DNA of 64,000 nt from assembly GCA_016186945.1 (NCBI GenBank), contig JACPKR010000038.1, positions 15,472 to 79,471 of the forward strand. The letters are read 5' to 3'. A model generated the notes under the pieces. The model did no database searches. It had not been told where the DNA came from and was given only the letters and a program-made list of their open reading frames with translations. Positions within the stretch are counted from its first letter, which is position 1. Each line of letters starts with the position of its first letter. This DNA is from Deltaproteobacteria bacterium. Its GTDB lineage: Bacteria > Bdellovibrionota_B > Oligoflexia > Oligoflexales > Bog-1112. A program made the position numbers and the translations under genes. Below are positions 2,103-61,751 of the stretch, in pieces.

Positions 2103-3446
2103 ATGCCTACATCGTTCTACGCCTGGCTTCTCCCCATACTTATTTGGGGACAATGTGTCTTAGCCGATCGTCCCAAGGAAGTTTCCCCAGCTCCGAAGGA
2201 TGCGTCTGCCACTCTGACTATAAATAAAATCCTGGGTCTTACAATAGATTCTTCCATAAATCCTGGGACTTACAACTATCTCATGTCCGGTTTTGAAAAA
2301 GCCAAGCTGGAGGGTTACCAAGCCATCCTTATCCGGCTTGACACGCCTGGTGGCCTCGTTTCCACAACGAAGGACATTTTAACCCTCATAGGCGATAGCA
2401 ACATTTTAACCATAGTCTGGATCACACCGGAAGGAGCGTCAGCCTCGAGCGCGGGGGCTATTATCGCGAGTGGCGCGCATGTGCTTGCGATGTCACCAGG
2501 GACGAATTTTGGTGCAGCGACACCCATACAAATGTCGCAGGACATTGAGCAGGGAGACATGCGTAAGAAGGCCATCAACGACCTTGTGGCTCTCGTTCAG
2601 AGTTTGTCGGAATCACGGGGTCGGAATGCAGAACTCTTTGGCAAAATGATTGAAGAGGCGGCGTCCTACAAATCAAAGGAAGCATTGGAAAACAACCTGA
2701 TTGATTATCTTGTAAGCACAGAGCAGGAACTCCTGGAGAAGATGAATGACCGCAAGGTGACCATACTCGGTCAGGAATACAAACTTGCCACTCACTCTGC
2801 GACGATTTCGGTAAGTCACGAGATGGACCTCGGGCAGCAGCTTCTGAACACGCTCGCTAGCCCGGGGCTTGCTTATGTTCTCTTCCTCTTGGGGGCCGCT
2901 CTGCTTTATCTGGAATTTCAGGCGCCCGGTGGCTTTATAGCAGGTTCCATAGGTGCGCTATGTCTTCTTCTTGCAGGTATTGGGTTTCAAGTCTTACCCC
3001 TCAATTTCGGCGCTCTTGGCCTGATTGTTCTTTCTTTCATTATGTTTATTCTGGAAGCTTACATTACAAGTTACGGGCTTCTATCCATTGCAGGCCTCGC
3101 CGCGCTTCTGGCAGGTTCTCTCTTTCTTTTCCGTACTGACGAAGCTTATATGAGTGTCAGTCGCTCTCTCGTCTTTTCAAGTGTTGGAGTTGTTGCTCTA
3201 TTCTTAGCTGGGTTAGGTATATACTTTTTGCGCGATCTTCGCAGACACAAACTTCCGAAAAACTATTATTCCTTGATAGGAAAAAAGGGTACGATAGTCA
3301 CCATTCTGCCGACTGAAGACGGGCAGCATTTCTACCAGATGCGCATTGCGGGTGAAATTTGGAAAGCTCGCTCGGAGCAAGAATATCACGTTGGAGATCA
3401 TTGCACCGTCAAAGAAGAACAGAACGGGATGACTTTGTTCATCTGA
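2103..3446 (+). CDS. NfeD-family membrane-bound ClpP-class serine protease
   Basis: ClpP-like N-domain (RLDTPGGLV, SSAGAIIASGAH), central TM block and C-terminal NfeD OB-fold region. Paired with the downstream SPFH gene. Confidence 0.85.
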   Translation: MPTSFYAWLLPILIWGQCVLADRPKEVSPAPKDASATLTINKILGLTIDSSINPGTYNYLMSGFEKAKLEGYQAILIRLDTPGGLVSTTKDILTLIGDSNILTIVWITPEGASASSAGAIIASGAHVLAMSPGTNFGAATPIQMSQDIEQGDMRKKAINDLVALVQSLSESRGRNAELFGKMIEEAASYKSKEALENNLIDYLVSTEQELLEKMNDRKVTILGQEYKLATHSATISVSHEMDLGQQLLNTLASPGLAYVLFLLGAALLYLEFQAPGGFIAGSIGALCLLLAGIGFQVLPLNFGALGLIVLSFIMFILEAYITSYGLLSIAGLAALLAGSLFLFRTDEAYMSVSRSLVFSSVGVVALFLAGLGIYFLRDLRRHKLPKNYYSLIGKKGTIVTILPTEDGQHFYQMRIAGEIWKARSEQEYHVGDHCTVKEEQNGMTLFI

Positions 3447-24814: not shown

Positions 24815-24937
24815 CAAGGGGATTTCTTGGAGGAACCAGCTGCGCAGTTTCCTCCAAACCACCTCCTTGCCACAAGAGGAACCAGCTGCGCAGTTTCCTC
24901 CAAACCACCTCCTTGCCACAAGCGGGTTGCGTATTAC
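24815..24937 (-). mobile_element. MITE-1 copy 7 (core duplicated in tandem, right TIR)
   Basis: Two successive GGAACCAGCTGCGCAGTTTCCTCCAAACCACCTCCTTGCCACAAG units, then CGGGTTGCGTATTAC. Fills the whole spacer between convergent stops. Confidence 0.8.
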
Positions 24938-45760: not shown

Positions 45761-47590
45761 CTAAAGCGGCTTTAGAACACGGTCTAATACTTCACGCTTG
45801 TGCTCAATATACCCGACCTCTGTGAGGAGCCTGCTAAACGCATCCCCAAAACTGTCTAAGGACTGCTGAACGCAAGATGTGAAAGATTGGTTCATCGAAC
45901 TTTCCGTTAAGAGCATTGCTCGGACAGCTAGCGTGCCCGCGACTACAGCCACACTCGTTCCCTTTCCTCCAACCCCCTTGTCCGGAGACGTCGATTTTGT
46001 GCTTGCATCTACACCTTGCAATCTTTGAGCAGTCGCAAATTCCTGCGCAAATGTACGCGCCTGAGCCTCAACCCTACTCGGGATGGACATGATCCCCCCC
46101 CCGAAATCCTTCTTGTAGATTCTCCCTAAGCAAGTCCCTGTCACCGCAGCACAATTATGGGTTAGGATATTGTACTCCCTACCGTACGAATTTTGAGCGC
46201 CCATCATTCTTTCTCTCATTGTTCGATAGGTCTGCAAATTATGGGCTATCTTCGCTCTGCCTGCCACACTGAGTTGCTCAAATTTCGGGTACGCAAGCTC
46301 TGGCTTGAGTCGCTGCTGTTCTGATGGAAAAATGTGATGCCAATATATGTCCTCCCCTTCAAGCAAGCCCATTTCCGCCTTCAGGGAACTTGTCAGGGTC
46401 GAGTAACTTTCAAGATTGTCCCTTAGAAAGACATAGTTTCGCATGTCCACCTGCAATTTTTGTAAAATTTCTGGCTCAGATGTTCTCAGACGCTCATAGT
46501 CATCAAAGCCTGTAAGAAAGTCTGCTCGTTTCAGGTAGGCTTCAAGAGCTTCATTAGTGGACAAATTTAACCTAGTTTTTAAAGATTCCTTGACCTCAGC
46601 AAGGTGGCTCTTCAACCCACTGTCGTAAATATTTTTTTCTTCAAAGTAAACTGTTTGTTGGAACCATTTGTGAAAGCTCTCGAACTGCTCTTCGGTCATG
46701 GGAGGCAATTCCGTAATCACCCTTCTGGTTGTTCCAAAACGAGCCGCATCAACCTCATAGCTATTTCCCATAGCCCAGGAAATATAGACACGGCGTGGAC
46801 TAGGCGTTTCGTCACCAATGAGGAGAGCTGAGTGTCCAAACATTTTGAGAAGAGCTATGCTTGGATCAATTTTTTCAGGATGCCATGTAATCAATCTAAC
46901 TCTTATAGCGCCGACCTGGCCTGGAGTTGCAAGACCAAGGGACAGCTTTTGCCCAAAAGAGCTGAAGTTTATCTGCCCTTGTCTGTGATACTGTTCCTGG
47001 AAGAATTCAGGGCCGTTTTCAATTAATTCATCTACAGACCCCCTATAATCCTCAACCGACTTTTTAAAAGTATCTTCCTCCTGGTTATTCCCTAGACAAA
47101 CATCCAGAGAATTCTTATGGGCTTCAAACGAGTTGTAAAGTTCTGTCAGTGTCTCTGACATTTCGATATTTAGTGATAACGTTAGGCGATGAACATCGAA
47201 CATAGTCTGATCGTTATAGGAATCGAAAGTTATCTTCCGTTCCTCTGACCATGGGGAGCATTTCCCATCGTCACTCTGCCCGGAAAATTGACATCGTCTA
47301 AATTGCAGAGAGTTGGCTCCAGGAACAAATCCAACCAGGTTAAGTTTCGACTCAGATGAAAAGTCTTCGACACAAGATTGCTTGTCACAAATTTTGTATC
47401 GGAAAAACTCACCCTTGTTCAGCGGAAACTCAAGAACAGGAATTTTCTCGTTATTGACGGTCTGATACGAAATGTTCCCCAGCTGCTGCCCAGAAAGCGT
47501 CTGCTCCTCCTCATGGCTTTTTTTGCAGGTTGACATGAGGAATAGAATTGAACATAGAGCTAGAGTAGCAACTCTGCGAACTCGTAGCAT
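45761..47590 (-). CDS. hypothetical lipoprotein, paralog A (His...Asn-Cys motif)
   Basis: Lipobox LFLMSTC. Cys-rich N-domain, FGHSALLIG (His codon 46832-46834) and YNILTHNCAAV (Cys codon 46151-46153). Paralogous to the upstream gene. Confidence 0.6.
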   Translation of the reverse strand: MLRVRRVATLALCSILFLMSTCKKSHEEEQTLSGQQLGNISYQTVNNEKIPVLEFPLNKGEFFRYKICDKQSCVEDFSSESKLNLVGFVPGANSLQFRRCQFSGQSDDGKCSPWSEERKITFDSYNDQTMFDVHRLTLSLNIEMSETLTELYNSFEAHKNSLDVCLGNNQEEDTFKKSVEDYRGSVDELIENGPEFFQEQYHRQGQINFSSFGQKLSLGLATPGQVGAIRVRLITWHPEKIDPSIALLKMFGHSALLIGDETPSPRRVYISWAMGNSYEVDAARFGTTRRVITELPPMTEEQFESFHKWFQQTVYFEEKNIYDSGLKSHLAEVKESLKTRLNLSTNEALEAYLKRADFLTGFDDYERLRTSEPEILQKLQVDMRNYVFLRDNLESYSTLTSSLKAEMGLLEGEDIYWHHIFPSEQQRLKPELAYPKFEQLSVAGRAKIAHNLQTYRTMRERMMGAQNSYGREYNILTHNCAAVTGTCLGRIYKKDFGGGIMSIPSRVEAQARTFAQEFATAQRLQGVDASTKSTSPDKGVGGKGTSVAVVAGTLAVRAMLLTESSMNQSFTSCVQQSLDSFGDAFSRLLTEVGYIEHKREVLDRVLKPL

Positions 47591-47602
47591 TTAAACTCCA
47601 AG

Positions 47603-49186
47603 TCATCGTTTTTGATACATGTTGTCAAATCGTTCAGACTGTGCTTGAAGAATGGCTTCAAAAAAAGCCTGAGAGCGAACCTGATATTCTTCCAGCAGTC
47701 CACTACACGATCCTTCTAGACGCATAGAGGCAGCAGCACCGGCAACCGCTGCTCCGGTTAAAACAATTCCCAACAGAGCGACTCCCCTGGCATCACCGCT
47801 TGTGCGTCTGGCCTTCATCTCTCCCCGAACAGCCTCCTGCTTATGAGCCAAAGCCTGTGAACGCACTAGTGCTGGGGTGTCACTTGCTTGGATTGTTCTA
47901 TGTTGGTAGGGACGGAATTCATCGGTATTGTAAATGTCCTGTAAAACGCACATGCCTCTTTGCGCGCAATTCCAATTTGCTTTGTTATAGCTCTTTTCCT
48001 TCTGTTTTCTTGTACGATAGGCTCGCTGATATTCAAGAACCTTTTGGTAAGAATCAGAGTCCGGTTTTTTCCGAAGGGTTTCCTGCCATTTTTTCCCTTC
48101 TCTCCCTTCCAACCACGAATACGCGTCTTTTTGCGCAGTGCCCGCAGGGAGGTCTTGCTTGAACTTGGAAAACGTTGTCTCTTCAACTTTGCGAAGTTGG
48201 GTGTCCAACTCTTCATCCCAATAGCCACCCGTCTTCTGGTATGCCGCTTTGAACTGAGCCGCTTTCTCTTTCGTGATTTCCGGAAGTTCGATCACTTCCA
48301 GATCGGTCTTCTGGAATACATCCACGTCTTCACTCCAGCTATTGCGAAACGGAACTGAGTAGTAATCTGCCCCTTCTGGAAGAGATCTTGTTTCGAGTGC
48401 CGATTCCAGGTTAAATGCTCCTACAACGATGGCAACATGCCGATCATTGATTATTCTCTGGTAGAGTCTATCAAAGAATTGGGGCAACTCCTTCTGCTTC
48501 CAAACAAGCAAGGTTACTTTTACCGACTCTTTGTTAACGAGTTCAAATTTGTCAGTTTGTTCGGTTTGAAGAGCAGAAATTATGAACTGCGGGTTGGTCT
48601 CAACATCGATACGATTAGCAAAATGGAACGGAGTAGGGTCCCTTACTATAGCTGCTGAAACAAAGCTGTCGGGCTGGATGCCACACTGACGTAATTTTTC
48701 TCTCCACTCAACCGCATAAAGAAAAAACTCACTCGCTGACGATCTCACCAGAAGAGAATTCGTCCGTTCATTTGCCACGAACGTCGACAATTCAGCCGGA
48801 ACCTCTCCCTGCTGATAAGGAAAGGGAGGAAGCGAGTCTCGGCAAGCCAAACCGTCAATGTTTGTCCAACGACAAAAAAAAAGGGTGACCGTGTACTGTC
48901 CCGGAGCAAGCCAGTCTATTGTATGATTCTGAAAGGTAAAGAAATCAGTCTGGCATTCAGAATCACTTGCCTTGTCGGGGCAGATTTCGACCCGTACAAT
49001 GTCTTGCGGGTCCTTCTTTGGGAAATTTAAACCAAGAAACTTGGTCCCTTTGGCAGCTTCAGTTTCAAAGGTCTCATAAACCAAAACTCGATTAGGGCCT
49101 GTTGATTCCCCTTCCAGCACTGGCCTCTTAGGGGTTTTGCACCCAAAAGCAAGAAAAAGGAAAACTACAACGCATATGTTTTTCAT
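47603..49186 (-). CDS. hypothetical lipoprotein, paralog B (His...Asn-Cys motif)
   Basis: ATG at 49186 gives MKNICVVVFLFLAFGC (lipobox). DRHVAIVVG (His codon 48437-48439) and YNKANWNCAQRG (Cys codon 47966-47968). Confidence 0.6.
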   Translation of the reverse strand: MKNICVVVFLFLAFGCKTPKRPVLEGESTGPNRVLVYETFETEAAKGTKFLGLNFPKKDPQDIVRVEICPDKASDSECQTDFFTFQNHTIDWLAPGQYTVTLFFCRWTNIDGLACRDSLPPFPYQQGEVPAELSTFVANERTNSLLVRSSASEFFLYAVEWREKLRQCGIQPDSFVSAAIVRDPTPFHFANRIDVETNPQFIISALQTEQTDKFELVNKESVKVTLLVWKQKELPQFFDRLYQRIINDRHVAIVVGAFNLESALETRSLPEGADYYSVPFRNSWSEDVDVFQKTDLEVIELPEITKEKAAQFKAAYQKTGGYWDEELDTQLRKVEETTFSKFKQDLPAGTAQKDAYSWLEGREGKKWQETLRKKPDSDSYQKVLEYQRAYRTRKQKEKSYNKANWNCAQRGMCVLQDIYNTDEFRPYQHRTIQASDTPALVRSQALAHKQEAVRGEMKARRTSGDARGVALLGIVLTGAAVAGAAASMRLEGSCSGLLEEYQVRSQAFFEAILQAQSERFDNMYQKR

Positions 49187-49229
49187 TTTCAGTTCCCAAT
49201 GTGCATAATCCATGTTGTTGTTTCAGTAT

Positions 49230-49498
49230 ATTATGCATAAGCCACGCGGGGCAAGGAGGTGGTTTGGAGGAAACGTAATGCGTAAGCCACGCGGGGCAAG
49301 GAGGTGGTTTGGAGGAAACGTAATGCGTAAGCCACGCGGGGCAAGGAGATGGTTTGGAGGAAACGTAATGCGTAAGCGACGCGGGGCAAGGAGGTGGTTT
49401 GGAGGAAACGTAATGCGTAAGCCACTCGGGGCAAGGAGGTGGTTTGGAGGAAACTGCGCAGCTGGTTCCTCCAAGAAATCCCTGGGGGGAGGCGGCTC
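49230..49498 (+). repeat. MITE-1 copy 13: four 45-bp tandem units of TIR plus left arm, then a complete left half with core hairpin
   Basis: Units start at 49230, 49275, 49320, 49365 and 49410. The unit is GTAATGCGTAAGCCACGCGGGGCAAGGAGGTGGTTTGGAGGAAAC. Confidence 0.9.
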
Positions 49499-49500
49499 CT

Positions 49501-49965
49501 CTAAGCTTTCTGATCCCCCGACCTTCCAAAGGAATCAACGGGCAGTCTGGTGGGATGACCGCGTTCATTGACAGACACAAGGCGGACAAGGCCAGTGACA
49601 TGCGTGCTAGTTACCCCGTTTTCATTTAGACACGCAGTATGGTGGCAGGTGACTACTGCAGGATGGTCGAACACGATCTTACTTTTTATTGTGATGACGT
49701 CGCCATGACGGACGGGTTTGTGGAAGCTAAGCTGAGCATCCTTCACGACGAAGTGCTTGCCTTCGAGGTAAAGTTTCCTCAGTTGCTCGCGACCGAAAAG
49801 TTCTTCCCGAGCACGTTCGAAGAATTTTAGAAAATTAGCGTGATAGACATAACCCGTGAAGTCCGTATCTTCATAGTAAATCGGCACCTGGAATTCACCT
49901 TCCACAAGTCTCCTCGAAAGTTTCCGTCTAGGAGCGGCTTTTGAATTTATTGAGAAGGTCCTCAA
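49501..49965 (-). CDS. acyl-CoA thioesterase, 4HBT/YbgC family
   Basis: YYEDTDFTGYVYHANFLKFFERAREE hot-dog motif. A GTG at 49905 would avoid overlap with tex. Confidence 0.75.
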   Translation of the reverse strand: MRTFSINSKAAPRRKLSRRLVEGEFQVPIYYEDTDFTGYVYHANFLKFFERAREELFGREQLRKLYLEGKHFVVKDAQLSFHKPVRHGDVITIKSKIVFDHPAVVTCHHTACLNENGVTSTHVTGLVRLVSVNERGHPTRLPVDSFGRSGDQKA

Positions 49966-52366
49966 CGGAAAAGTGCTGCTCCTCCCGCTTCGGTCCTCGA
50001 TACCCGCCCCTCTCCTGTCTGCGAGGCGGATGGGAAGGATTGCCCTGGGGCCTTCTACTGTCAGACTGCTGACGATGGTGGGGCTTCACGTTTCCGTTCA
50101 CGTTGGGCGCTTCAGTACCTTGCGCACGCATCTGCGTTTGCGGTTTTCGGCAACTCAGGCTTATCCGGTTGCGTATCTTGTCCACACCGATGACATAGAC
50201 ACTCAGTATATCACCGACTGAAAAAGCAGTCGAAGGATCCGAACCGGTCTGAGGAGGAAGTTCACTGATGTGCACCAATCCATCCTGATGCACTCCTATA
50301 TCCACAAAACATCCGAAGCGCGTGACGTTGGAAACTGTACCCTTCAAGGGCATCCCAACTTTCAAGTCATGAATACTTGTCAGAGTGTTGGAAAACTCGA
50401 GGCGAGTGTTATCCTGACGCGGGTCACGTCCTGGTTTGGCAAGTTCCTTTACGATATCAAGAAGCGTAGGCATCCCTACTTCGTCATTTACATATCGCTC
50501 AAGTGGGATTGTTTTTATAAGCTCCTGCTTACCGATCAAATCACGCAGGGAAATTTGCAAGTCCTGTGCAAGCCGCTCGACGATGCTATAGCGTTCGGGA
50601 TGCACAGCTGAATTTTCCAGAGGGTTTTCTGAAAGCGAGGTGCGGAGGAACCCAGCAGCCTGCTCGAAGATCTTGGGGCCAAGCCCACTCACCTGCAAAA
50701 GTTCCTGGCGAGAACGAATGCCCCCTTGTTTGTCTCGGTACGCAACGAGGCTCTTTGCGAGTCCCGGTCCGATACCGGAAACGTTGCTGAGTAGCTTGAA
50801 CGAAGCAGTATTCATGTCCACTCCGACACGGTTCACGCAGCTACCGACAGTTTCCTGCAAAGTTTTATCAAGCTTGGAAGCGTCGCAGTCGTGCTGATAC
50901 TGCCCGATCCCCAGTGAGCGGGGGTCGATCTTAACCAATTCAGCAAGGGGGTCTTGCAGACGTCTAGCAATGCTCACCGCACTGCGTATGGTGGGGTCAA
51001 GGTCCGGAAATTCTTCCCGCGCAATCTGGTCGGTGGAATACACACTCGCGCCCGACTCGTTCACCATGTACCGCTTGATGTGTTCAAGGCCTTCCTTTCG
51101 AAGGACACCCAGGACAAAACGATCGACTTCCCGACTTCCCGTCCCGTTCCCCAAAGCAATACAATCGACTTTATGGCGTTCCAAAAGTTCCCTGAAAATC
51201 CTTTCCGCCTGTGCATTCTTGGGATCGTCCCCTTCCGAAAAGCGAGGAAAGATCACCCGGTGCTCCAAAAGTGCTCCGGTTGCCGACACAACCGCCAGTT
51301 TTGAACCTGTGCGCAAGCCTGGGTCGATACCACACACCACTTTCCCAGGAAGAGGGGGTAGAAGAAGAAGACTTTGAAGATTCGAAGCAAAAACGCGTAT
51401 GGCCTCTTCCTCTGCTCTTATGCGTAAATCCATGCGAAGCTCGGTTTCAATCGCGGGAGCGACAAGCCTTTTGTACGCATCCGCAACAGCTTCCTGAACC
51501 CAACGGGCAAGGTCTTGGGGAAGGGTTTCGGTTCTCTTTTCTTTTTTGATCGCAGCAAGGATTTCGTCCTTGATTCGCTCGGCATCGACCTCGATGCTGA
51601 CTTGTAGAACTTTCTCAGCCTCACCCCTTCGCACAGCCATGACACGATGAGAAGGCGCCCTCTGGATGGATTCGCGGTAGGAAAAATAGTTCTCGTATTT
51701 TTCCGCAGTCTTTTTCAGTTCTTCGGTGTTGGCACGCTCGTTCTGTTTAGCGGAGAGCATGCCAGTCTCAAAACTGATCCTTCTGGCCAAAGCTCGCAGC
51801 TCTGCTGTTTCGTTGATCTGCTCGGCAAAAATGTCAGCGGCACCCTTTAATGCTTCCTCCTCATCCGCAACAGCGAGTGCGGGGTCCACACCTTCTGTTT
51901 TCACGTATGTCCTAGCGAGTTCACGCAAGTCTCCCACCGCAGCCCATCTTTCGAGAATGGTCTTGAGCAAAGCGTCGAGACCCTTTTCCCTCGCCACGCT
52001 GGCCCGTGTCTTGCGTTTTGGCTTAAACGGAAGGTAGATGTCTTCCAACTCCTGCTTGGTAAGGCACTGTCGGATCTTCTCCTTCAACTGAGGCAGTTTT
52101 TGAGCAAGTTCTGGTTTTGCCTTAGCATGTTCTTCGATCACCTTGAGGTAGCGTTCCTTCGTCGTGTCCAACTCGGTCATGTAAGTGTAACGATCACGAA
52201 CTTGTTGCAGTGTAAGTTCAGTCATCGATCCAGTTTTTTCCTTTCGATAACGCGTCACGAATGGAATCGTACATTTTTCCTCGAAGAGAAGTTCCACCGC
52301 ATTTTTCACGTGAACTTCTTCAACCTTCAGCTCTTCAGCCAACTTGCCAATCACTGACCCTGACAT
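49928..52366 (-). CDS. tex: transcription accessory protein Tex (S1 RNA-binding)
   Basis: Tex N-terminal HTH, YqgF-like and HhH regions and a C-terminal S1 domain (GTVSNVTRFGCFVDIG..DGLVHISEL). Confidence 0.9.
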   Translation of the reverse strand: MSGSVIGKLAEELKVEEVHVKNAVELLFEEKCTIPFVTRYRKEKTGSMTELTLQQVRDRYTYMTELDTTKERYLKVIEEHAKAKPELAQKLPQLKEKIRQCLTKQELEDIYLPFKPKRKTRASVAREKGLDALLKTILERWAAVGDLRELARTYVKTEGVDPALAVADEEEALKGAADIFAEQINETAELRALARRISFETGMLSAKQNERANTEELKKTAEKYENYFSYRESIQRAPSHRVMAVRRGEAEKVLQVSIEVDAERIKDEILAAIKKEKRTETLPQDLARWVQEAVADAYKRLVAPAIETELRMDLRIRAEEEAIRVFASNLQSLLLLPPLPGKVVCGIDPGLRTGSKLAVVSATGALLEHRVIFPRFSEGDDPKNAQAERIFRELLERHKVDCIALGNGTGSREVDRFVLGVLRKEGLEHIKRYMVNESGASVYSTDQIAREEFPDLDPTIRSAVSIARRLQDPLAELVKIDPRSLGIGQYQHDCDASKLDKTLQETVGSCVNRVGVDMNTASFKLLSNVSGIGPGLAKSLVAYRDKQGGIRSRQELLQVSGLGPKIFEQAAGFLRTSLSENPLENSAVHPERYSIVERLAQDLQISLRDLIGKQELIKTIPLERYVNDEVGMPTLLDIVKELAKPGRDPRQDNTRLEFSNTLTSIHDLKVGMPLKGTVSNVTRFGCFVDIGVHQDGLVHISELPPQTGSDPSTAFSVGDILSVYVIGVDKIRNRISLSCRKPQTQMRAQGTEAPNVNGNVKPHHRQQSDSRRPQGNPSHPPRRQERGGYRGPKREEQHFSVEDLLNKFKSRS

Positions 52367-52404: not shown

Positions 52405-52824
52405 TTAGCTATAGATTTCCGTCTTGGAGAAGAAATAACCTAGCTCCCTTTCAGCAGATACAACGGAATCAGAACCATGGATCGTATTTTCTCCGATACT
52501 CTTCGCGTAGGTTCGTCGTATGGTCCCGTCCGCTGCTTGTGCTGGGTTGGTGGCTCCCATAATGTCACGATTTCTCTTCACAGCGTTCTCACCTTTCAAG
52601 GCCATCAGTACGACAGGAGTTGAGCTTAAAAACGCTGTCAGTTCGTCGAAAAAAGACTTTCCTCTGTGCTCAGCATAGAATCCTTCCGCCTCTTCCCGCG
52701 AAAGTTTTTTCATCTTCATTGCCGCAATTCTAAAGCCTTCTTCCTCATAGCGCCCGATGATTTTACCAATAAGATTCCTACGCATGGCATCAGGCTTAAT
52801 GATCGCTAATGTAACTTCGTCCAA
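52405..52824 (-). CDS. ndk: nucleoside diphosphate kinase
   Basis: LAIIKPDA and NTIHGSD (active-site His) with full-length NDK architecture. TTG start. Confidence 0.95.
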   Translation of the reverse strand: MDEVTLAIIKPDAMRRNLIGKIIGRYEEEGFRIAAMKMKKLSREEAEGFYAEHRGKSFFDELTAFLSSTPVVLMALKGENAVKRNRDIMGATNPAQAADGTIRRTYAKSIGENTIHGSDSVVSAERELGYFFSKTEIYS

Positions 52825-52864
52825 CTCTTATCCCTTTCTTGTCAATTTTGCCATTAAAAGCGCC

Positions 52865-52892
52865 ATACTACCTATTTTTCGCGATTTGACAA
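52865..52892 (-). promoter_or_regulatory. candidate sigma70-type promoter for ndk
   Basis: On the minus strand, TTGTCA-16 nt-TAGTAT. This is about 35-40 nt upstream of the ndk start and directly downstream of the A-tract array. Confidence 0.3.
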
Positions 52893-52921
52893 GATGCTCC
52901 CGCTTAGACGAGGCTGCCGTT

Positions 52922-52949
52922 GGATCCCGCGGTCAAGCCGCGGGATGAC
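52922..52949 (+). repeat. REP-like hairpin element, copy 1
   Basis: GGATCCCGCGGTCAAGCCGCGGGATGAC (7-bp perfect stem CCCGCGG/CCGCGGG, loop TCAAG). Second copy at 59379-59406. Confidence 0.8.
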
Positions 52950-53284
52950 AGACTCAAAAAAGCGGGATGACAGACTCAAAAAAGCGGGATGACAGACTCA
53001 AAAAAGCGGGATGACAGACTCAAAAAAGCGGGAAACAGACTCAAAAAAGCGGGAAACAGACTCAAAAAAGCGGGAAACAGACTCAAAAAAGCGGGAAACA
53101 GACTCAAAAAAGCGGGAAACAGACTCAAAAAAGCGGGATGACAGACTCAAAAAAGCGGGAAACAGACTCAAAAAAGCGGGATGACAGACTCAAAAAAGCG
53201 GGATGACAGACTCAAAAAAGCGGGATGACAGACTCAAAAAAGCGGGAAACAGACTCAAAAAAGCGGGATGACAGACTCAAAAAA
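52940..53284. repeat. 16-unit tandem array of 22-bp (GCGGGATGACAGACTCAAAAAA) and 21-bp (GCGGGAAACAGACTCAAAAAA) units
   Basis: Counted unit by unit. The order is L L L L S S S S S L S L L L S L (9 long, 7 short, 345 bp). Units are otherwise identical. Confidence 0.95.
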
Positions 53285-53296
53285 GTTTGTCCCCCA

Positions 53297-55645
53297 TTAC
53301 GAGGAAATTTTTCTCAAGATCGGCAAAACACATCCGGCGATAAAATAGACCGTAAGAGCTGCGGAAAAGGTCACGGTGAAGCCGAAATGCAGGGTACCGA
53401 TCTGAGCCAGGATCGAGCTTAACACAGAAACACTGCCGTTAATGGCCCAAGCCCAGGAGACATAGTGAGAGGATGCCTCGGCGATCCTTTGAATTCCCAA
53501 GACAAACGGAAAGCCCATCAGAAATGCCAAGGGGACAATCAAACCTACGATCGCAAGTAGGTCCACCCCGGGCGGAAATGAAGGGGCCACTCTCGCCAAG
53601 GCAGACAATGCAAAGCACAGAACGCCGCCGTACGCGCAAAGAACGGTGAATAAGCCCAGCCCCCACACTGTTGCCGGCTCCTTTGATGCCAGTTTCTTGG
53701 CTCCCAGTGCTCCCAATCCTCCCCCCACCAGGAAAGAAGAAATCCCAATGGACACAGCCAAAACGCTTTGTCCAAGAAGCAGCTTCAGTTTTTCAATCAC
53801 GGCAATCTCAATCACAATAAAAGAGAAACCAATCGCTGAAAAATAAATCGCAAATGCAAGCAGTGACCCTGGTGACGCTTTCAGGCGCGCATGGCTCAAA
53901 GGCCATAAGGGCAAGAGGATAAAAAGGATGCTACAAATCGCTGCCATAAAAAGTGAGGCCCATAAGTGGAAGTAATCCGCTTCCACTGGGAAAAAACGTG
54001 GGTTCATGCCCTTACGTACCCAGTCTCCAAAGAAGGAAAGCTTGCTGGAATTGAGAAAATGAGGGCTGTCAAAGTTTGGCACCGTCAAGTCGAAGGGGTA
54101 AGCCTCCACGAATTCGTGGACGGCCTCTTCATTTTCTTGAGCAAGAAGTGTGTAAACGTTGGACGCTCCCTCCAGGGGATAAAGCACCCGAAAGGCGTTG
54201 CGGTTACAAAATGATTCGATGCGTTGTTCTTCCTCCCGCAGAGGGCTTGTCCCCGCAAGGATTAAAACGGTCTGCAAACTTTCGATCACTAAGCTTGAAT
54301 CACGAGGGAAGGTATCCAGGATCATGCGCCAGGCTTTTAAGGATTCCTTCGCCGGAAAATGGTTCCAAAGGGAAATCGCGAATAGGCCCCCAGGTGCCAA
54401 TCTTTCTCGATAGGTCTGGAACATTTCGAGAGTGAAGGCTTCCTGACTGTCATTTTGAGAACCTAGGAATGCTGACGGGCTTCCCAGGGTGTCGGATAGG
54501 TGGATGATATCATAGGACGCTTCCGACCCCATGAGGGAGAGGGGGGAATCGGGGGGCGAGTGAAGCATCTCTTCCCCAAAAGGAGGCATAAAGGCAGGCT
54601 CTAAACTTCCGAGGAAATCGAAAAGCTTGCGATTGCGTTCCACCACCGTCAGCGAGGTGACATTGTGAAACCTTGCGAGCCGTACCAGATCGCCACCACC
54701 TAACCCCACTTGGAGAACCTTGGCCTTCTCTCTTAGTTTATACGGCAGGCTTTCGGGCGTGTGTTCGAAGTACTGCCAGTCTTCTTCCCCACCCGATCCC
54801 TGTGTGACAGCGAAGAACGTTCCTCCGTTGATGAAAAGTCCCCATTGTTTCGGCACCACACCTTCAAAGTACAAACTGAGGCCGGGAGCGTAACGAAAAG
54901 GGATGCGAGCCGACTCGACAAGGGAAATCTGTGCATAGGCTGATGAACTTTCCGCAAGAACCCGTGTCTCAGGTACAAACATTGCTTTTGCTAGCGGCTT
55001 GTAAGACGTTGAACTCGGGGACCAGTCTTTGGGGGAAATAACGAAGAGAAAAACCAGAAATCCAGAAAACGCACCGAGGAGTTTCCCTAAGTTTAACGGT
55101 GTAATGACTACGAAAGACAGGACACCCAATAAACTTGCCGCTGCCAGAGCTTTCCCGGGTGCCAGAATTTCGAGAAACACAAAGGCACACAAGCCCCCCA
55201 AACCGGCTCCCACAAGATCAGAAAAATAAACGCGATGCAGTTGCTCCGGTCTGAACACCATAGCAAGATTGATACAGTTGGAGACGAAAAAGAAAGGTAG
55301 AGATAACGCGCAGAAATACAGGAAAAGATAAAGGAGCGGGCGCCAACCCCAAAGCAGTTCGTTCGGGTTGTAATCAAAGGTCGTGACTAGGAGAAAACTC
55401 AAAACTGAGCTAATCGAAAACAACAATGAATTGTAAGCAAGGAACGAAAATGGATCTGCCTTGTCGTGGAATTTTTTCAGGTAACTCAGAAAAGACCCGC
55501 TATAACCAAAACCCAGCAAGGCTAGAGAAATGATTACACCAATTACGGAACTTTCCTGCACGATGGCAAGAAGCCGAAAAAGAACAATTTCGTAGGTCAG
55601 ACCTGCGCATGAGATCCCAAATACGAATAAGAACAGTCTATTCAT
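53297..55645 (-). CDS. polytopic membrane protein fused to a spermidine synthase-like (class I methyltransferase-fold) domain
   Basis: N- and C-terminal multi-TM blocks flank VLQVGLGGGDLVRLA...VVERN...YDIIHLSD (SpeE-like). The ATG at 55645 overlaps the pcm stop by 8 nt. Confidence 0.55.
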   Translation of the reverse strand: MNRLFLFVFGISCAGLTYEIVLFRLLAIVQESSVIGVIISLALLGFGYSGSFLSYLKKFHDKADPFSFLAYNSLLFSISSVLSFLLVTTFDYNPNELLWGWRPLLYLFLYFCALSLPFFFVSNCINLAMVFRPEQLHRVYFSDLVGAGLGGLCAFVFLEILAPGKALAAASLLGVLSFVVITPLNLGKLLGAFSGFLVFLFVISPKDWSPSSTSYKPLAKAMFVPETRVLAESSSAYAQISLVESARIPFRYAPGLSLYFEGVVPKQWGLFINGGTFFAVTQGSGGEEDWQYFEHTPESLPYKLREKAKVLQVGLGGGDLVRLARFHNVTSLTVVERNRKLFDFLGSLEPAFMPPFGEEMLHSPPDSPLSLMGSEASYDIIHLSDTLGSPSAFLGSQNDSQEAFTLEMFQTYRERLAPGGLFAISLWNHFPAKESLKAWRMILDTFPRDSSLVIESLQTVLILAGTSPLREEEQRIESFCNRNAFRVLYPLEGASNVYTLLAQENEEAVHEFVEAYPFDLTVPNFDSPHFLNSSKLSFFGDWVRKGMNPRFFPVEADYFHLWASLFMAAICSILFILLPLWPLSHARLKASPGSLLAFAIYFSAIGFSFIVIEIAVIEKLKLLLGQSVLAVSIGISSFLVGGGLGALGAKKLASKEPATVWGLGLFTVLCAYGGVLCFALSALARVAPSFPPGVDLLAIVGLIVPLAFLMGFPFVLGIQRIAEASSHYVSWAWAINGSVSVLSSILAQIGTLHFGFTVTFSAALTVYFIAGCVLPILRKISS

Positions 55646-56381
55646 TGATAGCACCCGTGAACGGCACAAATTGCACAGGTAGAATGCGTTTCGTTTCGAC
55701 ACCCTTTTCCGTTTTGGTGACGACCGTCAGGTATTGCGTCTGGAAAGGCGGCCCGACGGGAATGACCAGCCTGCCCCCGACTTTGAGTTGCTTCAGCAGG
55801 GGGGGAGGAATGTGACTGGCTGCTGCTGTGACGAGGATACCGTCAAAGGGCGCTTTGCTTTTATCGGGCCAACCGTAATACCCATCTCCGACCTTCCCTA
55901 AAACGTTTTTCAAACCTGCGTCTTCAAATCGTTTCTGCGCTGCTTCCCCTAGCTTGTCGATAATTTCAATGGTGTAAACTTCCTTCGCAAGATGGCTTAA
56001 AACAGCAGCCTGGTATCCAGAACCCGTTCCTATCTCAAGCACGCGGTCGTAGGCCTTCACCTCAAGGAGATCCGTCATCAAGGCAACAATGTAAGGCTGA
56101 GAAATCGTCTGGCCATAACCGATCGGCAGTGGCTGATCGAAATAGGCCAATGCCCGAAGGGCGGGAGGCACGAAGAGGTGCCGGGGAGTCTTCCGAAGTG
56201 CCGCATAGGTAGACTCGGCAAAATCCCCTCTTCCCGTGGAATAGGATGTCAACCGAGCTTCCTGCCTGATGGTATCTATTAGGTCCATAAGTTCCCCTTC
56301 CCATCCGAGCGGCCTAGCTCCCTTATCGGCTGCGACGAGGGCAAAGGATATATAAATTAACAATATTAGAGGCTTGGTCAT
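55638..56381 (-). CDS. pcm: protein-L-isoaspartate O-methyltransferase, with signal peptide
   Basis: GQTISQPYIVALM, VLEIGTGSGYQAAVL and GGRLVIPVG motifs. ATG at 56381 chosen because the track ORF extends through MITE-1. Confidence 0.85.
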   Translation of the reverse strand: MTKPLILLIYISFALVAADKGARPLGWEGELMDLIDTIRQEARLTSYSTGRGDFAESTYAALRKTPRHLFVPPALRALAYFDQPLPIGYGQTISQPYIVALMTDLLEVKAYDRVLEIGTGSGYQAAVLSHLAKEVYTIEIIDKLGEAAQKRFEDAGLKNVLGKVGDGYYGWPDKSKAPFDGILVTAAASHIPPPLLKQLKVGGRLVIPVGPPFQTQYLTVVTKTEKGVETKRILPVQFVPFTGAINE

Positions 56382-56436
56382 TTCGTCCCTCGTCCGACAT
56401 CTCTCTCTTTTTCGGACGGAAGGGGCAGGAATCTGA

Positions 56437-56596
56437 GTAATGCGTAAGCCAGGTAATGCGTAAGCCACTTGGGGCAAGGAGGTGGTTTGGAGGAAACTGC
56501 GCAGCTGGTTCCTCCAAGCAATCCCTTGGGGGGGCGACGGTTCCCTCGCCCCCCCAAATCCCCCTCTCCCTATTTGCCCCAAGTGGCTTACGCATT
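56437..56596 (+). mobile_element. MITE-1 copy 14 (full length, both TIRs, left TIR partly duplicated)
   Basis: GTAATGCGTAAGCCAG+GTAATGCGTAAGCCACTTGGGGCAAGGAGGTGG...CTATTTGCCCCAAGTGGCTTACGCATT. Confidence 0.9.
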
Positions 56597-57586
56597 CCAA
56601 ATATCGTCAACCGGCTCATCTTCGTTGCGCATGGAAAGGCCAACGATGCGAGGTCGGAGGGAAGGAGGAAGTATGTCGGGATTGACAACGGGCATCTGTC
56701 TACGAAGTGGAGAAGGGTTGCGCACAGAAAAATCTAATGATGCTAAGATGGCGCGTGCTATATACCAGACAGCTTGATGATCCGTTCCGTGTGCGGTTTT
56801 GATGGCGACCCCCAAGCCTTGCGGAAAATCAGCGTGACGAATACCTAAGCACAAAAGGCCATCTGCACCTTCTTTGGATACAACCTGCCCCATGCACGCT
56901 TTCATGACGATTGAGTCGACCCGGTTCATGCCTCCAATAAGATAAGGGTTGCGCACCATTGCTTCCCAAACCCAATCACTGTCCTTGTTTTTTGCGAGAG
57001 AACTAAAGAGTGTTGCCAATTCCCTCAACCTGAAAGAGACAGTGGGAAGATTACATCCGTCCTTTGCTATGAATTGCGGAGACCATTGAGGACCGAGTGT
57101 CTGGCGTATGACGTCGATAAATCCTTTATGAAAAGGGTGGGTCGGCAAATTATAGCTCACACGTGGCCACCCCTTTAATTGACAACCTCGCAAGAGGGCT
57201 GAATGCTCACCGGAGCAGGTATGATACCAACGACTAGGTTTGCGAATCTGTTTGCCAAATTGTTGAAGAGGAAGAGTGTGAGGTGTTTGCACCAAACGTT
57301 GTTCAGACGGTCTGAGGATACTTTTCGCTAGTTCCAGATGGCAAGGTTCTGCGTTGTGTGAGGACACACCGATGGCCTTTTGCTCCCAGGTTAAACTCTT
57401 GTCCAGCTCCTTCGAAAAGACTTTGATGTGAAATGGTTTGACTGACGAGCGACCGTAGGTCGTGATGTCTCCCCCGTGGGAATGGATCAGCTTATTTCCA
57501 CTTACCCAAGCGACGGCACCTAACTTTGCAACTTCACAAAGGCCTGCTCTTCGGTATTCAACCAATATTTCCCAATGATTTTTCAT
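56588..57586 (-). CDS. asparaginase II (PF06089-like) family protein
   Basis: RSSVKPF, SSHN.EP.H, HTCSGEHSALL, DGCNLPT and KEGADGL blocks in the order of the L-asparaginase II family. The last codons and TAA lie in the MITE-1 TIR. Confidence 0.6.
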   Translation of the reverse strand: MKNHWEILVEYRRAGLCEVAKLGAVAWVSGNKLIHSHGGDITTYGRSSVKPFHIKVFSKELDKSLTWEQKAIGVSSHNAEPCHLELAKSILRPSEQRLVQTPHTLPLQQFGKQIRKPSRWYHTCSGEHSALLRGCQLKGWPRVSYNLPTHPFHKGFIDVIRQTLGPQWSPQFIAKDGCNLPTVSFRLRELATLFSSLAKNKDSDWVWEAMVRNPYLIGGMNRVDSIVMKACMGQVVSKEGADGLLCLGIRHADFPQGLGVAIKTAHGTDHQAVWYIARAILASLDFSVRNPSPLRRQMPVVNPDILPPSLRPRIVGLSMRNEDEPVDDIWNA

Positions 57587-58903: not shown

Positions 58904-59083
58904 CGTAAGTCTCCTTTATTTGTGATGGCGCGCTACCGTTTTAAAGATGCCCCTTGCTATCTAAGTAATTGATAGTAAGATTATAATTTAAGAAGCCTCC
59001 AAAAAAAGGTGAGTATAGATGCCAGGGCTGTGCGGCCGGTTGTCCGCAATTTTTCATACGCCCATTGTGAAGGAGTTAGACGT

Positions 59084-59371
59084 ATGGTCAAGTCAGAACT
59101 GATTGAAAAGTTAGCCGATCGAGCGGGGATTACATTGTTTAAGGCGGAGGAACTCGTAGACCTCTTCTTTAACACCCTATCAGGAACCTTGGGCAAAGGT
59201 GGGCGCATTGAAATCCGAGGGTTCGGTGCCTTTTCTGTAAAGGAGTACAAGGGGTACACGGGTCGAAATCCTAAGACAGGCGAAGAGGTGACCGTTCCCT
59301 CGAAACGCCTACCTGTTTGGAGAACCGGCACTGAGCTTCGTCAACGTGTCGACTCAGTTTTTTCCAAGTGA
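59084..59371 (+). CDS. ihfB: integration host factor beta-like (HU/IHF family) DNA-binding protein
   Basis: ATG at 59084 with an AGGAG RBS. MVKSELIEKLA...GGRIEIRGFGAFS...GRNPKTGE is close to the IHF-beta pattern. Confidence 0.75.
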   Translation: MVKSELIEKLADRAGITLFKAEELVDLFFNTLSGTLGKGGRIEIRGFGAFSVKEYKGYTGRNPKTGEEVTVPSKRLPVWRTGTELRQRVDSVFSK

Positions 59372-59375
59372 GCAC

Positions 59376-60692
59376 TTAGGATCCCGTGGTCAAGCCGCGG
59401 GATGACTTAGGAACTTCGTCGGAACCTTGACTCCGTGACAGGAGTGTCTGAACAGCCGAGGCGCTTGCCCGTATGGTGCCATCGGCGATCTTGAAAAGGG
59501 CATCCTGCATCACTTCTAGAATAATAGCCTTCGCCAGTGTCATGCGAGTGGTCTCATCGTTAGGCCATCTCAGTACATTTTGGCAGAACTTTAATGCAAA
59601 CGGAAAGGTGACTGTAGCCACGGAAACGGTATAGGATTTCTCTGCGAGATAATTCCCAAGTTTTCGCCCAAGTTGGCGCCAGCTGAGGGGTTTTGCCTTG
59701 GGGAACACGAGGTAAATGCGTTTTTCGTGAATTGCCTTCGCAAGCGGAGTGTCCAGTCGCTTTCTCGGAAAGGAACGAAGGAGAAGCTTGTCAACTCCCG
59801 ACTCGGTGATATCCAGGAGGACAGAAACCATGAGGTGCTCCCTGATGTCCTGCCAAAAACGTGTCGGATTGGGAAGAAGATAAGTGCGAATCAAACGGCG
59901 TGCTGAGACTGAAATGATGTTCTTGTTGATGAACGATTGGGTTGTCTCGGCACTGATGAGAAGCCCTGTCCTCAGCAATTCTGTTTTGTCATCCAGAGGC
60001 TCTAGCGCTTCGAAGTCATATTGTTTCGTTGTGGCAACCGCATCGTAGTCCCATAGAGGCAAATGGACGGTGATCTCATCTGGAATCTGATTGAGAAGCG
60101 TTGTAAAGGCTTCGTCTTCATCAAGCAAGACTTTGCAAGCCATGGTGTCAAAGATGTTTCGCAATTCTCTGCTCTCACACATCTTGTCCGCAGCCAGTTC
60201 GAGTAGTCGTAAAGCGAAAGTCATAGCATTCTTATGGTTAGTGTCCTCAAAACGGGAGATCTGCCTGGCGAAGTGGAGGAGAATCTCAGGGAGTCGGGAC
60301 TGAATGAGACTTGCTAAGCTCAAAATGCGCTCAGATTTCATGCGAAAATCGCTAGCAAGTTCGTCGTAGGCCGCAGCGAAAGCCAAGAGTGCATCGCCGT
60401 GCTGCCATCCTTTTTCCGCTTGAAGGTGTGCTTCGAACCAGAAGGGCGCTGAAGTTTCGTCCAGTGTCCACGGAAGTTCCATCAAATTTCGTACATGCAG
60501 CGCGAAGGTCTCGTTGTCGGCCTGGGTATTATGGAGCGAAGCCAGCCACGCCCCGCTTGTAAACGTCGCGAAGGAAGCAAGAATTCCTATTTCAGCGGAC
60601 GGATCATCATCCTGAGTCACCGAGCTGCCACGAGCTGCCAGGGAAAACACACACAACGAGAGTGTAATGATCCGCCTCAAAGATGACCTCAT
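59376..60692 (-). CDS. hypothetical secreted protein (438 aa)
   Basis: Signal-peptide-like N-terminus (ITLSLCVFSLAARG). Mostly helical composition. No family recognised. Confidence 0.5.
   Translation of the reverse strand: MRSSLRRIITLSLCVFSLAARGSSVTQDDDPSAEIGILASFATFTSGAWLASLHNTQADNETFALHVRNLMELPWTLDETSAPFWFEAHLQAEKGWQHGDALLAFAAAYDELASDFRMKSERILSLASLIQSRLPEILLHFARQISRFEDTNHKNAMTFALRLLELAADKMCESRELRNIFDTMACKVLLDEDEAFTTLLNQIPDEITVHLPLWDYDAVATTKQYDFEALEPLDDKTELLRTGLLISAETTQSFINKNIISVSARRLIRTYLLPNPTRFWQDIREHLMVSVLLDITESGVDKLLLRSFPRKRLDTPLAKAIHEKRIYLVFPKAKPLSWRQLGRKLGNYLAEKSYTVSVATVTFPFALKFCQNVLRWPNDETTRMTLAKAIILEVMQDALFKIADGTIRASASAVQTLLSRSQGSDEVPKSSRGLTTGS
59379..59406 (+). repeat. REP-like hairpin element, copy 2
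   Basis: GGATCCCGTGGTCAAGCCGCGGGATGAC, 8 nt after the ihfB-like stop. Also encodes the last 9 residues of the convergent gene. Confidence 0.8.
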
Positions 60693-60813: not shown

Positions 60814-61566
60814 TTACTTGCGTTTAAGAAAATGTTTAGGTGGACGAATGGTTTCTACATCTTTCTTCATGATGAAGAGGTAGTTGAATCCCCTAAGGAA
60901 GTAATTACCTTCCACGGCAGAGTTGTGCCAGTTTCTTCGTTTCAGCGTTTGGTTGTGTCGAACAACGCACACGATGTCAACGGGACGAAAGAAGTGGCCC
61001 AGGATATTGAAAAGTTCAAAGCCTAGGGGAACGAAGGGTTTTCCTTTCTTGAAAGAATCACTTACGTAGAGGGCACAGTAGCGTTTGTCACGCAGGACAC
61101 GGTAGATTTCCGCAATGACTTCCGTCATGGCCTCGTAATAGGCATCGCTGCGGGCATCGAGTGTTCCAATGCATTCCTCCTTACCTGAGTAAGTGAGGTG
61201 AGTGGAATAGGGGGGATCAATGAAAACAAAGTCAGAACTTTCGTCCTCCAAAGGAAGAGATCTTGCGTCTGCTTTTACAATGTCGTTGCGGTAAGGAGCT
61301 AGGTCGAAGCCACGACCCTTACGTTTTAAGTCCTTGCAAACATCGAGAGTGGTGCCGCTCCCACACATAGGATCCACGACCGTATCATTTTCCCGTGTGT
61401 AGCGTCGCAGAAGGTTCCATATAACGAAAGACGGGGTTGCTCCCTTGTAGTTTTGATCCCCTTGCACGGATGTTCCGTAATGTTGAGAAGGGTATTCCCA
61501 CAAGGTGGTAGTTTGCAGTTCAAGGGCAGGTTTGCCAAAATTCACTTTATTGTTGTGTAAGTTCAT
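60814..61566 (-). CDS. DNA methyltransferase (N6-adenine/N4-cytosine, DPPY type), no visible restriction partner
   Basis: SAM motif VVDPMCGSGTT and catalytic motif FIDPPYS. ATG at 61566 is preferred because the track ORF runs through MITE-1. Confidence 0.75.
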   Translation of the reverse strand: MNLHNNKVNFGKPALELQTTTLWEYPSQHYGTSVQGDQNYKGATPSFVIWNLLRRYTRENDTVVDPMCGSGTTLDVCKDLKRKGRGFDLAPYRNDIVKADARSLPLEDESSDFVFIDPPYSTHLTYSGKEECIGTLDARSDAYYEAMTEVIAEIYRVLRDKRYCALYVSDSFKKGKPFVPLGFELFNILGHFFRPVDIVCVVRHNQTLKRRNWHNSAVEGNYFLRGFNYLFIMKKDVETIRPPKHFLKRK

Positions 61567-61609
61567 GGGGCAGGTTCTGTCATAAATCAAGGGCAAATGC
61601 AAGAATCTT

Positions 61610-61749
61610 GTAATGCGTAAGCCACTTGGGGCAAATAGGGAGAGGGGGGTTTGGGGGGGCGAGGGAAAAGCCTGCCCTGAGCAAAGCGAAGGGTCGCTCC
61701 CCCAAGGGATTTCTTGGAGGAACCAGCTGCGCAGTTTCCTCCAAACCAC
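61610..61749 (-). mobile_element. MITE-1 copy 16 (long subfamily, one TIR, truncated at the core)
   Basis: GTAATGCGTAAGCCACTTGGGGCAAATAGGGAG...GCCTGCCCTGAGCAAAGCGAAGGGTCGCTC...TTGGAGGAACCAGCTGCGCAGTTTCCTCCAAACCAC. Confidence 0.85.
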
Positions 61750-61751
61750 TT

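Follow-up and report, generated by a model that had tools for sequence, protein, structure and literature searches.

In a 64,000-nt stretch of a Deltaproteobacteria bacterium genome (GenBank assembly GCA_016186945.1, contig JACPKR010000038.1; hereafter the window, with coordinates given as positions 1–64,000), the intergenic region upstream of ndk, the nucleoside diphosphate kinase gene, contains a tandem array at 52940–53284. We read this array as a recently expanded, lineage-specific intergenic minisatellite of the variable-number tandem repeat (VNTR) type, which started from the arm of a hairpin at the junction of a rearrangement, and the probability attached to this reading is roughly 0.55. 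It is supported by 16 perfect units, a single variant site, relatives that lack the array, a hairpin arm shared with the unit, and other amplified repeats. An earlier annotation of the same DNA (the preliminary description) listed the VNTR possibility last, and it is the one that fits best. The strong curvature predicted for the array is read as a by-product of the unit amplified, because the 21–22 bp unit contains an A6 run (six consecutive adenines).

Repeat units and predicted shape of the array

Direct parsing of the 345 bp gives 16 perfect head-to-tail units, nine of 22 bp (L, GCGGGATGACAGACTCAAAAAA) and seven of 21 bp (S, GCGGGAAACAGACTCAAAAAA), arranged on the plus strand in the order LLLLSSSSSLSLLLSL. 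The sole difference between the two is TG in place of A. On the minus strand, which is the sense strand for both flanking genes, the unit reads TTTTTTGAGTCTGTCATCCCGC or TTTTTTGAGTCTGTTTCCCGC, and in the direction of transcription (53284–52940) the 16 units can be written as TTTTTTGAGTCTGT(CA/T)TCCCGC. Tandem Repeats Finder (TRF) places the array at 52940–53285 with a period of 22 and 16.0 copies (score 594), along with an alternative 43-bp period (score 616). A head-to-tail unit within 10–100 bp, repeated at high identity, is the form of a VNTR or minisatellite, and a chance origin is excluded. The G+C content is 45%. The L and S units are not significantly clustered (7 runs versus 8.9 ± 1.9 for random order, by hand calculation), there are no promoter-like hexamers within the unit, and the mixed 21/22-bp periods break all frames, leaving only spurious open reading frames (ORFs) of 50–57 aa. 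Unit follows directly upon unit, which sets the array apart from CRISPR (clustered regularly interspaced short palindromic repeats) structures with their unique spacers of similar length.

None of the 11–15-mers derived from the unit occurs elsewhere in the window. A 20-mer spanning the unit junction is found in none of the GTDB representative genomes and nowhere in IMG/VR, its three isolated hits in JGI metagenomes are chance matches in unrelated sequence, and the array with its flanks has no match among PLSDB plasmids or INPHARED phages. The anatomy given in the preliminary description (16 units of 21/22 bp, each ending in A6, with a tract every 21–22 bp or about two helical turns) is exact by both the parse and TRF. 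Its deduction of recent expansion or homogenisation from near-perfect unit identity also holds, with all 16 units perfect and one variant site, while the search for other occurrences of the unit that it proposed returned none in the window, the GTDB representatives or IMG/VR.

The window derives from a short-read metagenome-assembled genome (MAG), and the copy number and the L/S order rest on that assembly. The k=31 Logan contigs from four short-read sequencing runs served as an independent check. In the flanks of the array they agree with the window sequence within 0–1 mismatch. On the ndk side of the array they end at 52939; on the opposite side they read through one L unit and end at 53256, the place where the L/S branch starts. 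The repeat and its edges are therefore real. The longest substring repeated inside the array is 107 bp, so reads of 150 nt could resolve the order of the units.

Three-dimensional paths were calculated from two dinucleotide wedge tables, Bolshoy–Trifonov and De Santis (the absolute values are approximate), with 2,517 other 345-bp segments of the same stretch as background. In both models the array is the most curved DNA predicted in the window, about 12–14 standard deviations (SD) above the background. The Bolshoy–Trifonov table gives 57 degrees per 31 bp (background 16.9 ± 2.9, maximum 27) and an end-to-end/contour ratio of 0.40, and the De Santis table gives 42 degrees per 31 bp (background 13.9 ± 2.3, maximum 22) and a ratio of 0.65, the background ratio being about 0.9 for both. 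A simulated all-S array nearly closes into a circle and an all-L array forms a superhelix, whereas control arrays carrying the same unit at 16- or 27-bp periods are predicted to be straight. In a parameter-free phasing count, any five consecutive A-tracts are coherent (at least 0.94) for a helical repeat of 10.3–10.78 bp, whereas the coherence of all 16 tracts varies between 0.17 and 0.92, depending on the helical repeat. Given phase coherence over five tracts that becomes variable over 16, the array DNA should be locally planar, strongly bent and globally superhelical. One A6 per 21–22 bp together with predicted curvature is the pattern of phased A-tracts, and the strong curvature or superhelicity anticipated in the preliminary description is supported in silico by the two wedge models and the phasing count.

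Hairpin arm, lineage specificity and proposed birth of the array

The array adjoins a perfect palindrome of 23 nt with a 9-bp stem, located by an inverted-repeat search at 52924–52946 (ATCCCGCGG-TCAAG-CCGCGGGAT on the plus strand, ATCCCGCGG-CTTGA-CCGCGGGAT on the minus strand). The last 7 nt of the palindrome (GCGGGAT, plus strand) are also the first 7 nt of unit 1, and the array thus appears to have grown from one arm of a dispersed hairpin, resembling a repetitive extragenic palindrome (REP) or a terminator, plus 15 nt of flank. The extended hairpin folds with −26.2 kcal/mol (z −3.6), has no U-tract after it, and probably serves the upstream gene as a 3'-end or terminator-type hairpin. At 59379–59406 the 28-nt hairpin element GGATCCCGYGGTCAAGCCGCGGGATGAC occurs a second time (27 of 28 positions match, E 1.6e-8), which makes two copies 6.4 kb apart in the window versus 0.01–0.05 expected. 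This second copy lies 7 nt past the stop of an IHF/HU-family gene (59009–59371, plus strand), at a convergent gene junction, and it suggests a family of REP- or terminator-like hairpins without U-tracts. It ends in GATGAC and then diverges, being followed by TTAGGAAC and not by AGACTCAAAAAA; this identifies the L unit (…GGGATGAC…) as ancestral and the S unit as derived. The second copy also overlaps the last codons of a convergent 438-aa ORF without a Pfam match.

The locus was compared with those of the five closest relatives by Tex, the protein encoded downstream of ndk (60–66% identity). The ndk-tex-4HBT synteny is kept in all five, and TRF finds no tandem array at ndk in any of them, as expected for a lineage-specific VNTR. 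Upstream of ndk, four of the five carry accB-pgpA (with spacers of 81–96 nt in three of these) and the remaining one has a divergent histidine-kinase gene and a 229-nt spacer; the spacer in the window, minus the array, is 127 nt. The closest relative of the SpeE-like gene located upstream of the array is distant (L009, 36% identity); it keeps the pairing of this gene with that of protein-L-isoaspartate O-methyltransferase (PCMT) and has no ndk downstream. A scan of genome contigs for orthologous loci, made with the SpeE-like protein, found no relative. With accB-pgpA-ndk as the order in four of the relatives and a PCMT–SpeE-like pair that occurs without ndk, gene order places the array at a synteny breakpoint, as a lineage-specific addition. 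In the databases the organism is represented by one strain-level lineage, its proteins forming clusters with just one member. One of the relatives (L012, Logan SRR14234074) has a tandem repeat of its own at 3111–3241 (55 bp × 2.1), over a 74-aa ORF region upstream of accB, which is unrelated in sequence to the array at ndk.

Intergenic tandem amplification is a habit of this genome. Partial copies of an element that resembles a miniature inverted-repeat transposable element (MITE) are amplified at 49233–49454 (45 bp × 4.9), between 4HBT and the next gene, and at 24830–24922 (46 bp × 2), and the Logan contigs break at the MITE-like copies too. The genome is thus prone to such expansions, and the periods of 45–46 bp are not helically phased, which argues against general selection for phasing. 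The MITE-like element itself, ~157 bp long, is found at 56441–56597; it has perfect 23-nt terminal inverted repeats (AATGCGTAAGCCACTTGGGGCAA at 56441–56463, the complement at 56575–56597) and an internal hairpin, GGAGGAAAC…GGTTCCTCC.

The array may therefore be pictured as follows. When the PCMT/SpeE-like block joined ndk, a spacer would have formed in which a 22-bp segment, consisting of T6, 9 nt and the first 7 nt of the dispersed hairpin, was duplicated repeatedly by slipped-strand mispairing or unequal recombination. A single TG-to-A variant would then have spread to seven of the 16 copies. With one A6 per 21–22 bp the product would be strongly curved, a run of five S units being planar and the array as a whole superhelical. 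The upstream transcript would be lengthened at its 3' end by 345 nt of U/C-rich RNA without structure. The likeliest effect of the array would be an architectural one, a copy-number-dependent modulation of the conserved sigma-70-type ndk-tex promoter 47 nt away. Under this reading, the array shows the birth of a minisatellite from a terminator-type hairpin arm at a rearrangement junction.

Several points weigh against a minisatellite of this kind. Its geometry is that expected of a selected architectural element (57 and 42 degrees per 31 bp versus 16.9 and 13.9 in the background), and no curvature is predicted for the off-phase controls made of this unit. The array is also directly upstream of a well-conserved promoter. 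Selection or homogenisation, and not only youth, could account for the perfect identity of the 16 units, and the assignment to the VNTR type rests on the assembly of a single lineage.

The ndk promoter and alternative explanations

The genes neighbouring the array (SpeE-like, ndk, tex) are all on the minus strand. The upstream gene (53297–55702) codes for an 801-aa membrane protein similar to SpeE and to S-adenosylmethionine (SAM) methyltransferases, with a weak Methyltransf_23 match; PF01564 is found in its homologues, which go by the names of spermidine synthase or SAM-dependent methyltransferase (the NCBI annotation of the gene is HYW48_08145, 782 aa). Its TAA stop codon (53299–53297) is followed by a 12-nt spacer (53296–53285) and then by the array. 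A weak hairpin over the stop codon (53290–53306, minus strand), succeeded by CAAAC and the first T6 of the array, has −6.5 kcal/mol and z +0.26, i.e. it is no better than shuffles, and could act as a terminator only marginally, if at all. Downstream, the array is followed first by ndk (52405–52824, minus strand, TTG start at 52824; PF00334, E 6e-55), and an identical protein is encoded on the Logan contigs. The tex gene (49928–52366, minus strand), for an RNA-binding transcription accessory protein, starts 38 nt after ndk, and the two are probably co-transcribed. The closest named homologues of Tex are from Oligoflexales (~55% identity).

In respect to the rest of the window, the genes are those of an ordinary chromosome (prfC, a class Ic (Glu/Gln) tRNA-synthetase gene, folP, opp and others). 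The PCMT ORF (55638–56600, minus strand) is called from a TTG at 56600, its Pfam domain begins at residue 130 and the MITE-like element overlaps its N-terminal extension; translation probably starts further downstream than called. Four large ORFs of 609, 536, 438 and 422 aa (45761–49213, minus; 59376–60692, minus; 62727–63995, plus) have no Pfam match, and those of 536 and 438 aa have no NCBIfam match either. Two long intergenic gaps, of 885 nt (55703–56587) and 977 nt (61750–62726), contain no tRNA and no Rfam match.

The ndk promoter is composed of the −35 hexamer TTGTCA (52892–52887, minus strand), a 16-nt spacer (52886–52871) and the −10 hexamer TAGTAT (52870–52865). The consensus promoter scan is not significant alone (9 of 12 matches, one site versus 1.1 expected from shuffles). 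In the alignment of the ndk upstream regions from the window and the five relatives, CTTGTCAA is invariant and TA(G/C)TAT is present in 6/6. The candidate promoter that the preliminary description placed at 52865–52892 is thus supported, with the −35 invariant and the −10 nearly so across six lineages. We infer a transcription start near 52857. The array edge is 47 nt from the −35 hexamer at 52892, the array extends from about −82 to −427, and the A-tract closest to the promoter has its centre near −101. The promoter is bracketed by a perfect 9-nt inverted repeat, TCTTGTCAA / TTGACAAGA at 52837–52845 and 52886–52894, with one arm in the −35 region and the other in the 5' untranslated region (UTR), shortly before the ribosome-binding site. 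An operator or a leader structure may be formed by this repeat.

Between the palindrome and the −35 hexamer there is a G+C-rich stretch of 31 nt (52923–52893, minus strand), which reads CCAACGGCAGCCTCGTCTAAGCGGGAGCATC directly upstream of the −35. An UP element is an A/T-rich segment at −40 to −60 with which RNA polymerase makes contact through its alpha C-terminal domain. No such segment is present upstream of ndk, where −38 to −60 is G+C-rich. The UP-element position suggested for the array in the preliminary description is therefore not borne out, as the array begins only at ~−82. Nor is the array a conserved part of ndk regulation, the five relatives having the same promoter and no array.

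These positions bear on the idea of a selected curved-DNA module for ndk-tex, in which a static bend or superhelix, tuned by slippage of units as in a rheostat, would act by wrapping RNA polymerase or by recruiting bend-loving nucleoid proteins such as IHF/HU. The predicted curvature of 12–14 SD above the background in two models, the in-phase blocks of five units, the conserved ndk promoter 47 nt away and the IHF/HU-family gene 6 kb away are consistent with such a module, and there are precedents in lkt of Mannheimia haemolytica, sabA of Helicobacter pylori, meningococcal nadA and promoter repeats of Mycobacterium tuberculosis. However, at −82 to −427 most of the array is far beyond the known reach of upstream curvature. 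If the zone of curved activators is taken as roughly −40 to −150, only the first three units are inside −150. The G+C-rich −38 to −60 segment without an UP element and the use of the same promoter by relatives without the array also speak against it, and an A-run in a unit of 21–22 bp is not very improbable for a product of slippage. We consider the rheostat rather unlikely. It is unlikely, too, that the array would be a selected, copy-number-tunable, 345-bp superhelical DNA spring, made from a terminator-hairpin arm, which would set or insulate ndk-tex output or scaffold a nucleoid protein on 16 phased half-sites. The organism belongs to a Bdellovibrionota/Oligoflexia-like lineage, and histone-based chromatin is reported for this phylum (PMC11789641). 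If functional, the array would be an unusually large and clean natural case of DNA shape, and not sequence recognition, controlling a housekeeping promoter. Slippage would provide it with an inbuilt "dial", and the uncultured lineage is distant from those pathogens in which promoter repeats are known. It is also a ready natural fragment of 345 bp of curved DNA for biophysics.

An array of protein-binding sites would consist of 16 phased palindrome halves (GCGGGAT/GCGGGAA), serving as an iteron-like, centromere-like or titration platform, or of 16 GANTC methylation sites. A period of 21–22 bp is the classic iteron spacing and falls within the range of the direct repeats of iterons (about 17–22 bp), and each unit repeats the half-site of a palindrome present twice in the window. 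On the other hand, Pfam finds no rep, par or dnaA genes in the window but ordinary housekeeping genes, there is no plasmid or phage similarity, and the second palindrome copy, at a convergent gene end, is in a terminator- or REP-like position and not in that of an operator. The iteron alternative of the preliminary description fails on the defining features, with no rep gene, DnaA boxes or DNA unwinding element in a chromosomal housekeeping context, and the array as a set of binding sites, for proteins or for methylation, is regarded as distinctly doubtful.

An origin of replication at this place might be proposed from the GC skew of the plus strand, which is negative over 1–53 kb and positive over 54–64 kb, the sign change at ~53–57 kb having origin-type polarity. 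The switch is independent of gene orientation (mean skew of the minus-strand genes −0.042 on the left and +0.065 on the right, Mann–Whitney p = 0.003). Nevertheless, the window has 15 DnaA boxes versus 11.7 expected, none of them near the array, and the array, at 45% G+C, has no adjoining AT-rich unwinding element. With no DnaA-box cluster, no dnaA, dnaN or par in the window and the wrong gene orientation, the origin is rejected. The skew switch coincides with the synteny breakpoint, so a translocated or inverted block, which the switch may mark, is the simpler explanation.

For methylation, each unit holds one GACTC (GANTC), the window outside the array has 224 GANTC sites versus ~315 expected, and a DNA methylase gene (PF01555) is located at 60814–61749 (minus strand). 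Yet the avoidance is no weaker for GGNCC, TTAA, CCGG and AATT, the density of GANTC in intergenic DNA is not raised, and the methylase scores 28.9 bits versus the CcrM cut-off of 830. A GANTC site array is rejected on these grounds (z −5.6 shared by other palindromes, no intergenic enrichment, a methylase that is not a CcrM equivalog). Relative to dinucleotide-preserving shuffles, with the array excluded, the under-represented palindromes of the window are GGNCC (z −7.9), TTAA (−6.5), CCGG (−6.3), AATT (−5.9), GANTC (−5.6), GGCC (−5.3) and CTAG (−4.8), and TATA and ATAT are over-represented. The avoidance may result from restriction-modification pressure or codon effects.

Action at the RNA level would involve either a 345-nt 3' UTR that loads Rho or destabilises read-through, insulating ndk, or a plus-strand sponge for CsrA/Rsm. 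From its place after the stop codon and before the strong hairpin, the array is probably part of the upstream gene's transcript. The stop-codon hairpin is weak, and pyrimidines make up 74% of the minus-strand RNA, which has more C than G and is unstructured. CsrB carries GGA repeats, of which the plus-strand units, each with GGAUGA or GGAAAC, are reminiscent. Against both forms, Rfam gives no match for 52700–53500 even at E 10, and nothing credible for the whole window at the gathering level. As a Rho entry site the array has only ~26% C, modest for a rut (Rho utilization) site. In folding, the array is no more stable than shuffles (z −0.19 for the minus and +0.37 for the plus strand, no excess structure), none of the 16 plus-strand GGA motifs is displayed in a hairpin loop, the plus strand has no promoter-like site, and the window, the only part of the genome seen, has no csrA or hfq. 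A sponge of the CsrB/RsmZ type, for which GGA × 16 would come without loops, promoter or Rfam match, is rejected, and action at the RNA level as a whole is judged very unlikely.

Finally, it is highly unlikely that the array is partly an artefact in which a real repeat was given a wrong copy number, L/S order or join in the MAG: such arrays do fragment short-read assemblies (every k=31 Logan contig breaks here), 345 bp is longer than typical reads, and the GC-skew switch and the synteny break coincide with the array, but both flanks end in unit sequence found nowhere else in the window or in the public collections searched, the branch in the distal Logan contig comes after one L unit, as it should from the window sequence, and with a maximal internal repeat of 107 bp, the path becomes unique with 150-nt reads or with k of 109 or more.

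Comparison with known repeat systems

The repeats upstream of lkt in Mannheimia haemolytica are close in design. There, a variable number of tandem ACAAAAAACA repeats precedes the lkt core promoter, and they have been called curved enhancers (PMC2697988, in a passage that cites Highlander & Weinstock 1994). In both cases each head-to-tail unit has an A6 tract that is helically phased, and the repeats are placed upstream of a sigma-70-type core promoter and occur in one lineage only; for lkt, the unit number differs between strains, and the repeats have been proposed as sites of phase variation. Unlike the array, the lkt repeats have a 10-bp unit (one tract per turn), in 2–3 or few copies near the promoter, whereas here a unit of 21–22 bp (one tract per two turns) is present in 16 copies at −82 to −427.

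Other promoter repeats are known from pathogens: the T-tract of H. pylori sabA acts as a rheostat (PMC4081817), the TAAA tract of Neisseria meningitidis nadA is a promoter-associated repeat (PMC2791445), and promoter tandem repeats of M. tuberculosis vary in copy number (PMC12817950). The array resembles them in being slippage-made, placed upstream of or next to a promoter, and hard to see in short-read assemblies. In these systems the length of the repeat alters spacing or DNA shape and hence promoter output; they differ from the array in that variation of copy number and effects on expression have been measured, and in repeats that are nearer to the core promoter or duplicate promoter elements.

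The iterons of R6K, RK2 and F are, like the array, direct repeats of about 17–22 bp with a period of about two helical turns. The iteron origins of theta-replicating plasmids (reviewed in PMC4980987) differ in having a rep gene, DnaA boxes, an AT-rich unwinding element and usually 3–9 iterons, while the array is chromosomal and without these companions. The likeness to REP sequences and bacterial interspersed mosaic elements (BIMEs) is in the 23-nt G+C-rich palindrome, present in at least two copies 3' of genes, with no U-tract. A BIME, however, contains whole palindromes in alternating orientation, clusters of which are not seen in the array; the array repeats one arm plus 15 nt, directly, and two copies of the hairpin are known. 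In kinetoplast minicircles and curved eukaryotic satellites, A-tracts locked to the helix produce large static curvature. These differ in having one tract per turn and in being eukaryotic or organellar, whereas the array is bacterial and intergenic, with one tract per two turns. In general, although not conserved in its relatives, the array is visually striking and physically interesting, and as judged from its sequence it fits a known class of repeat.

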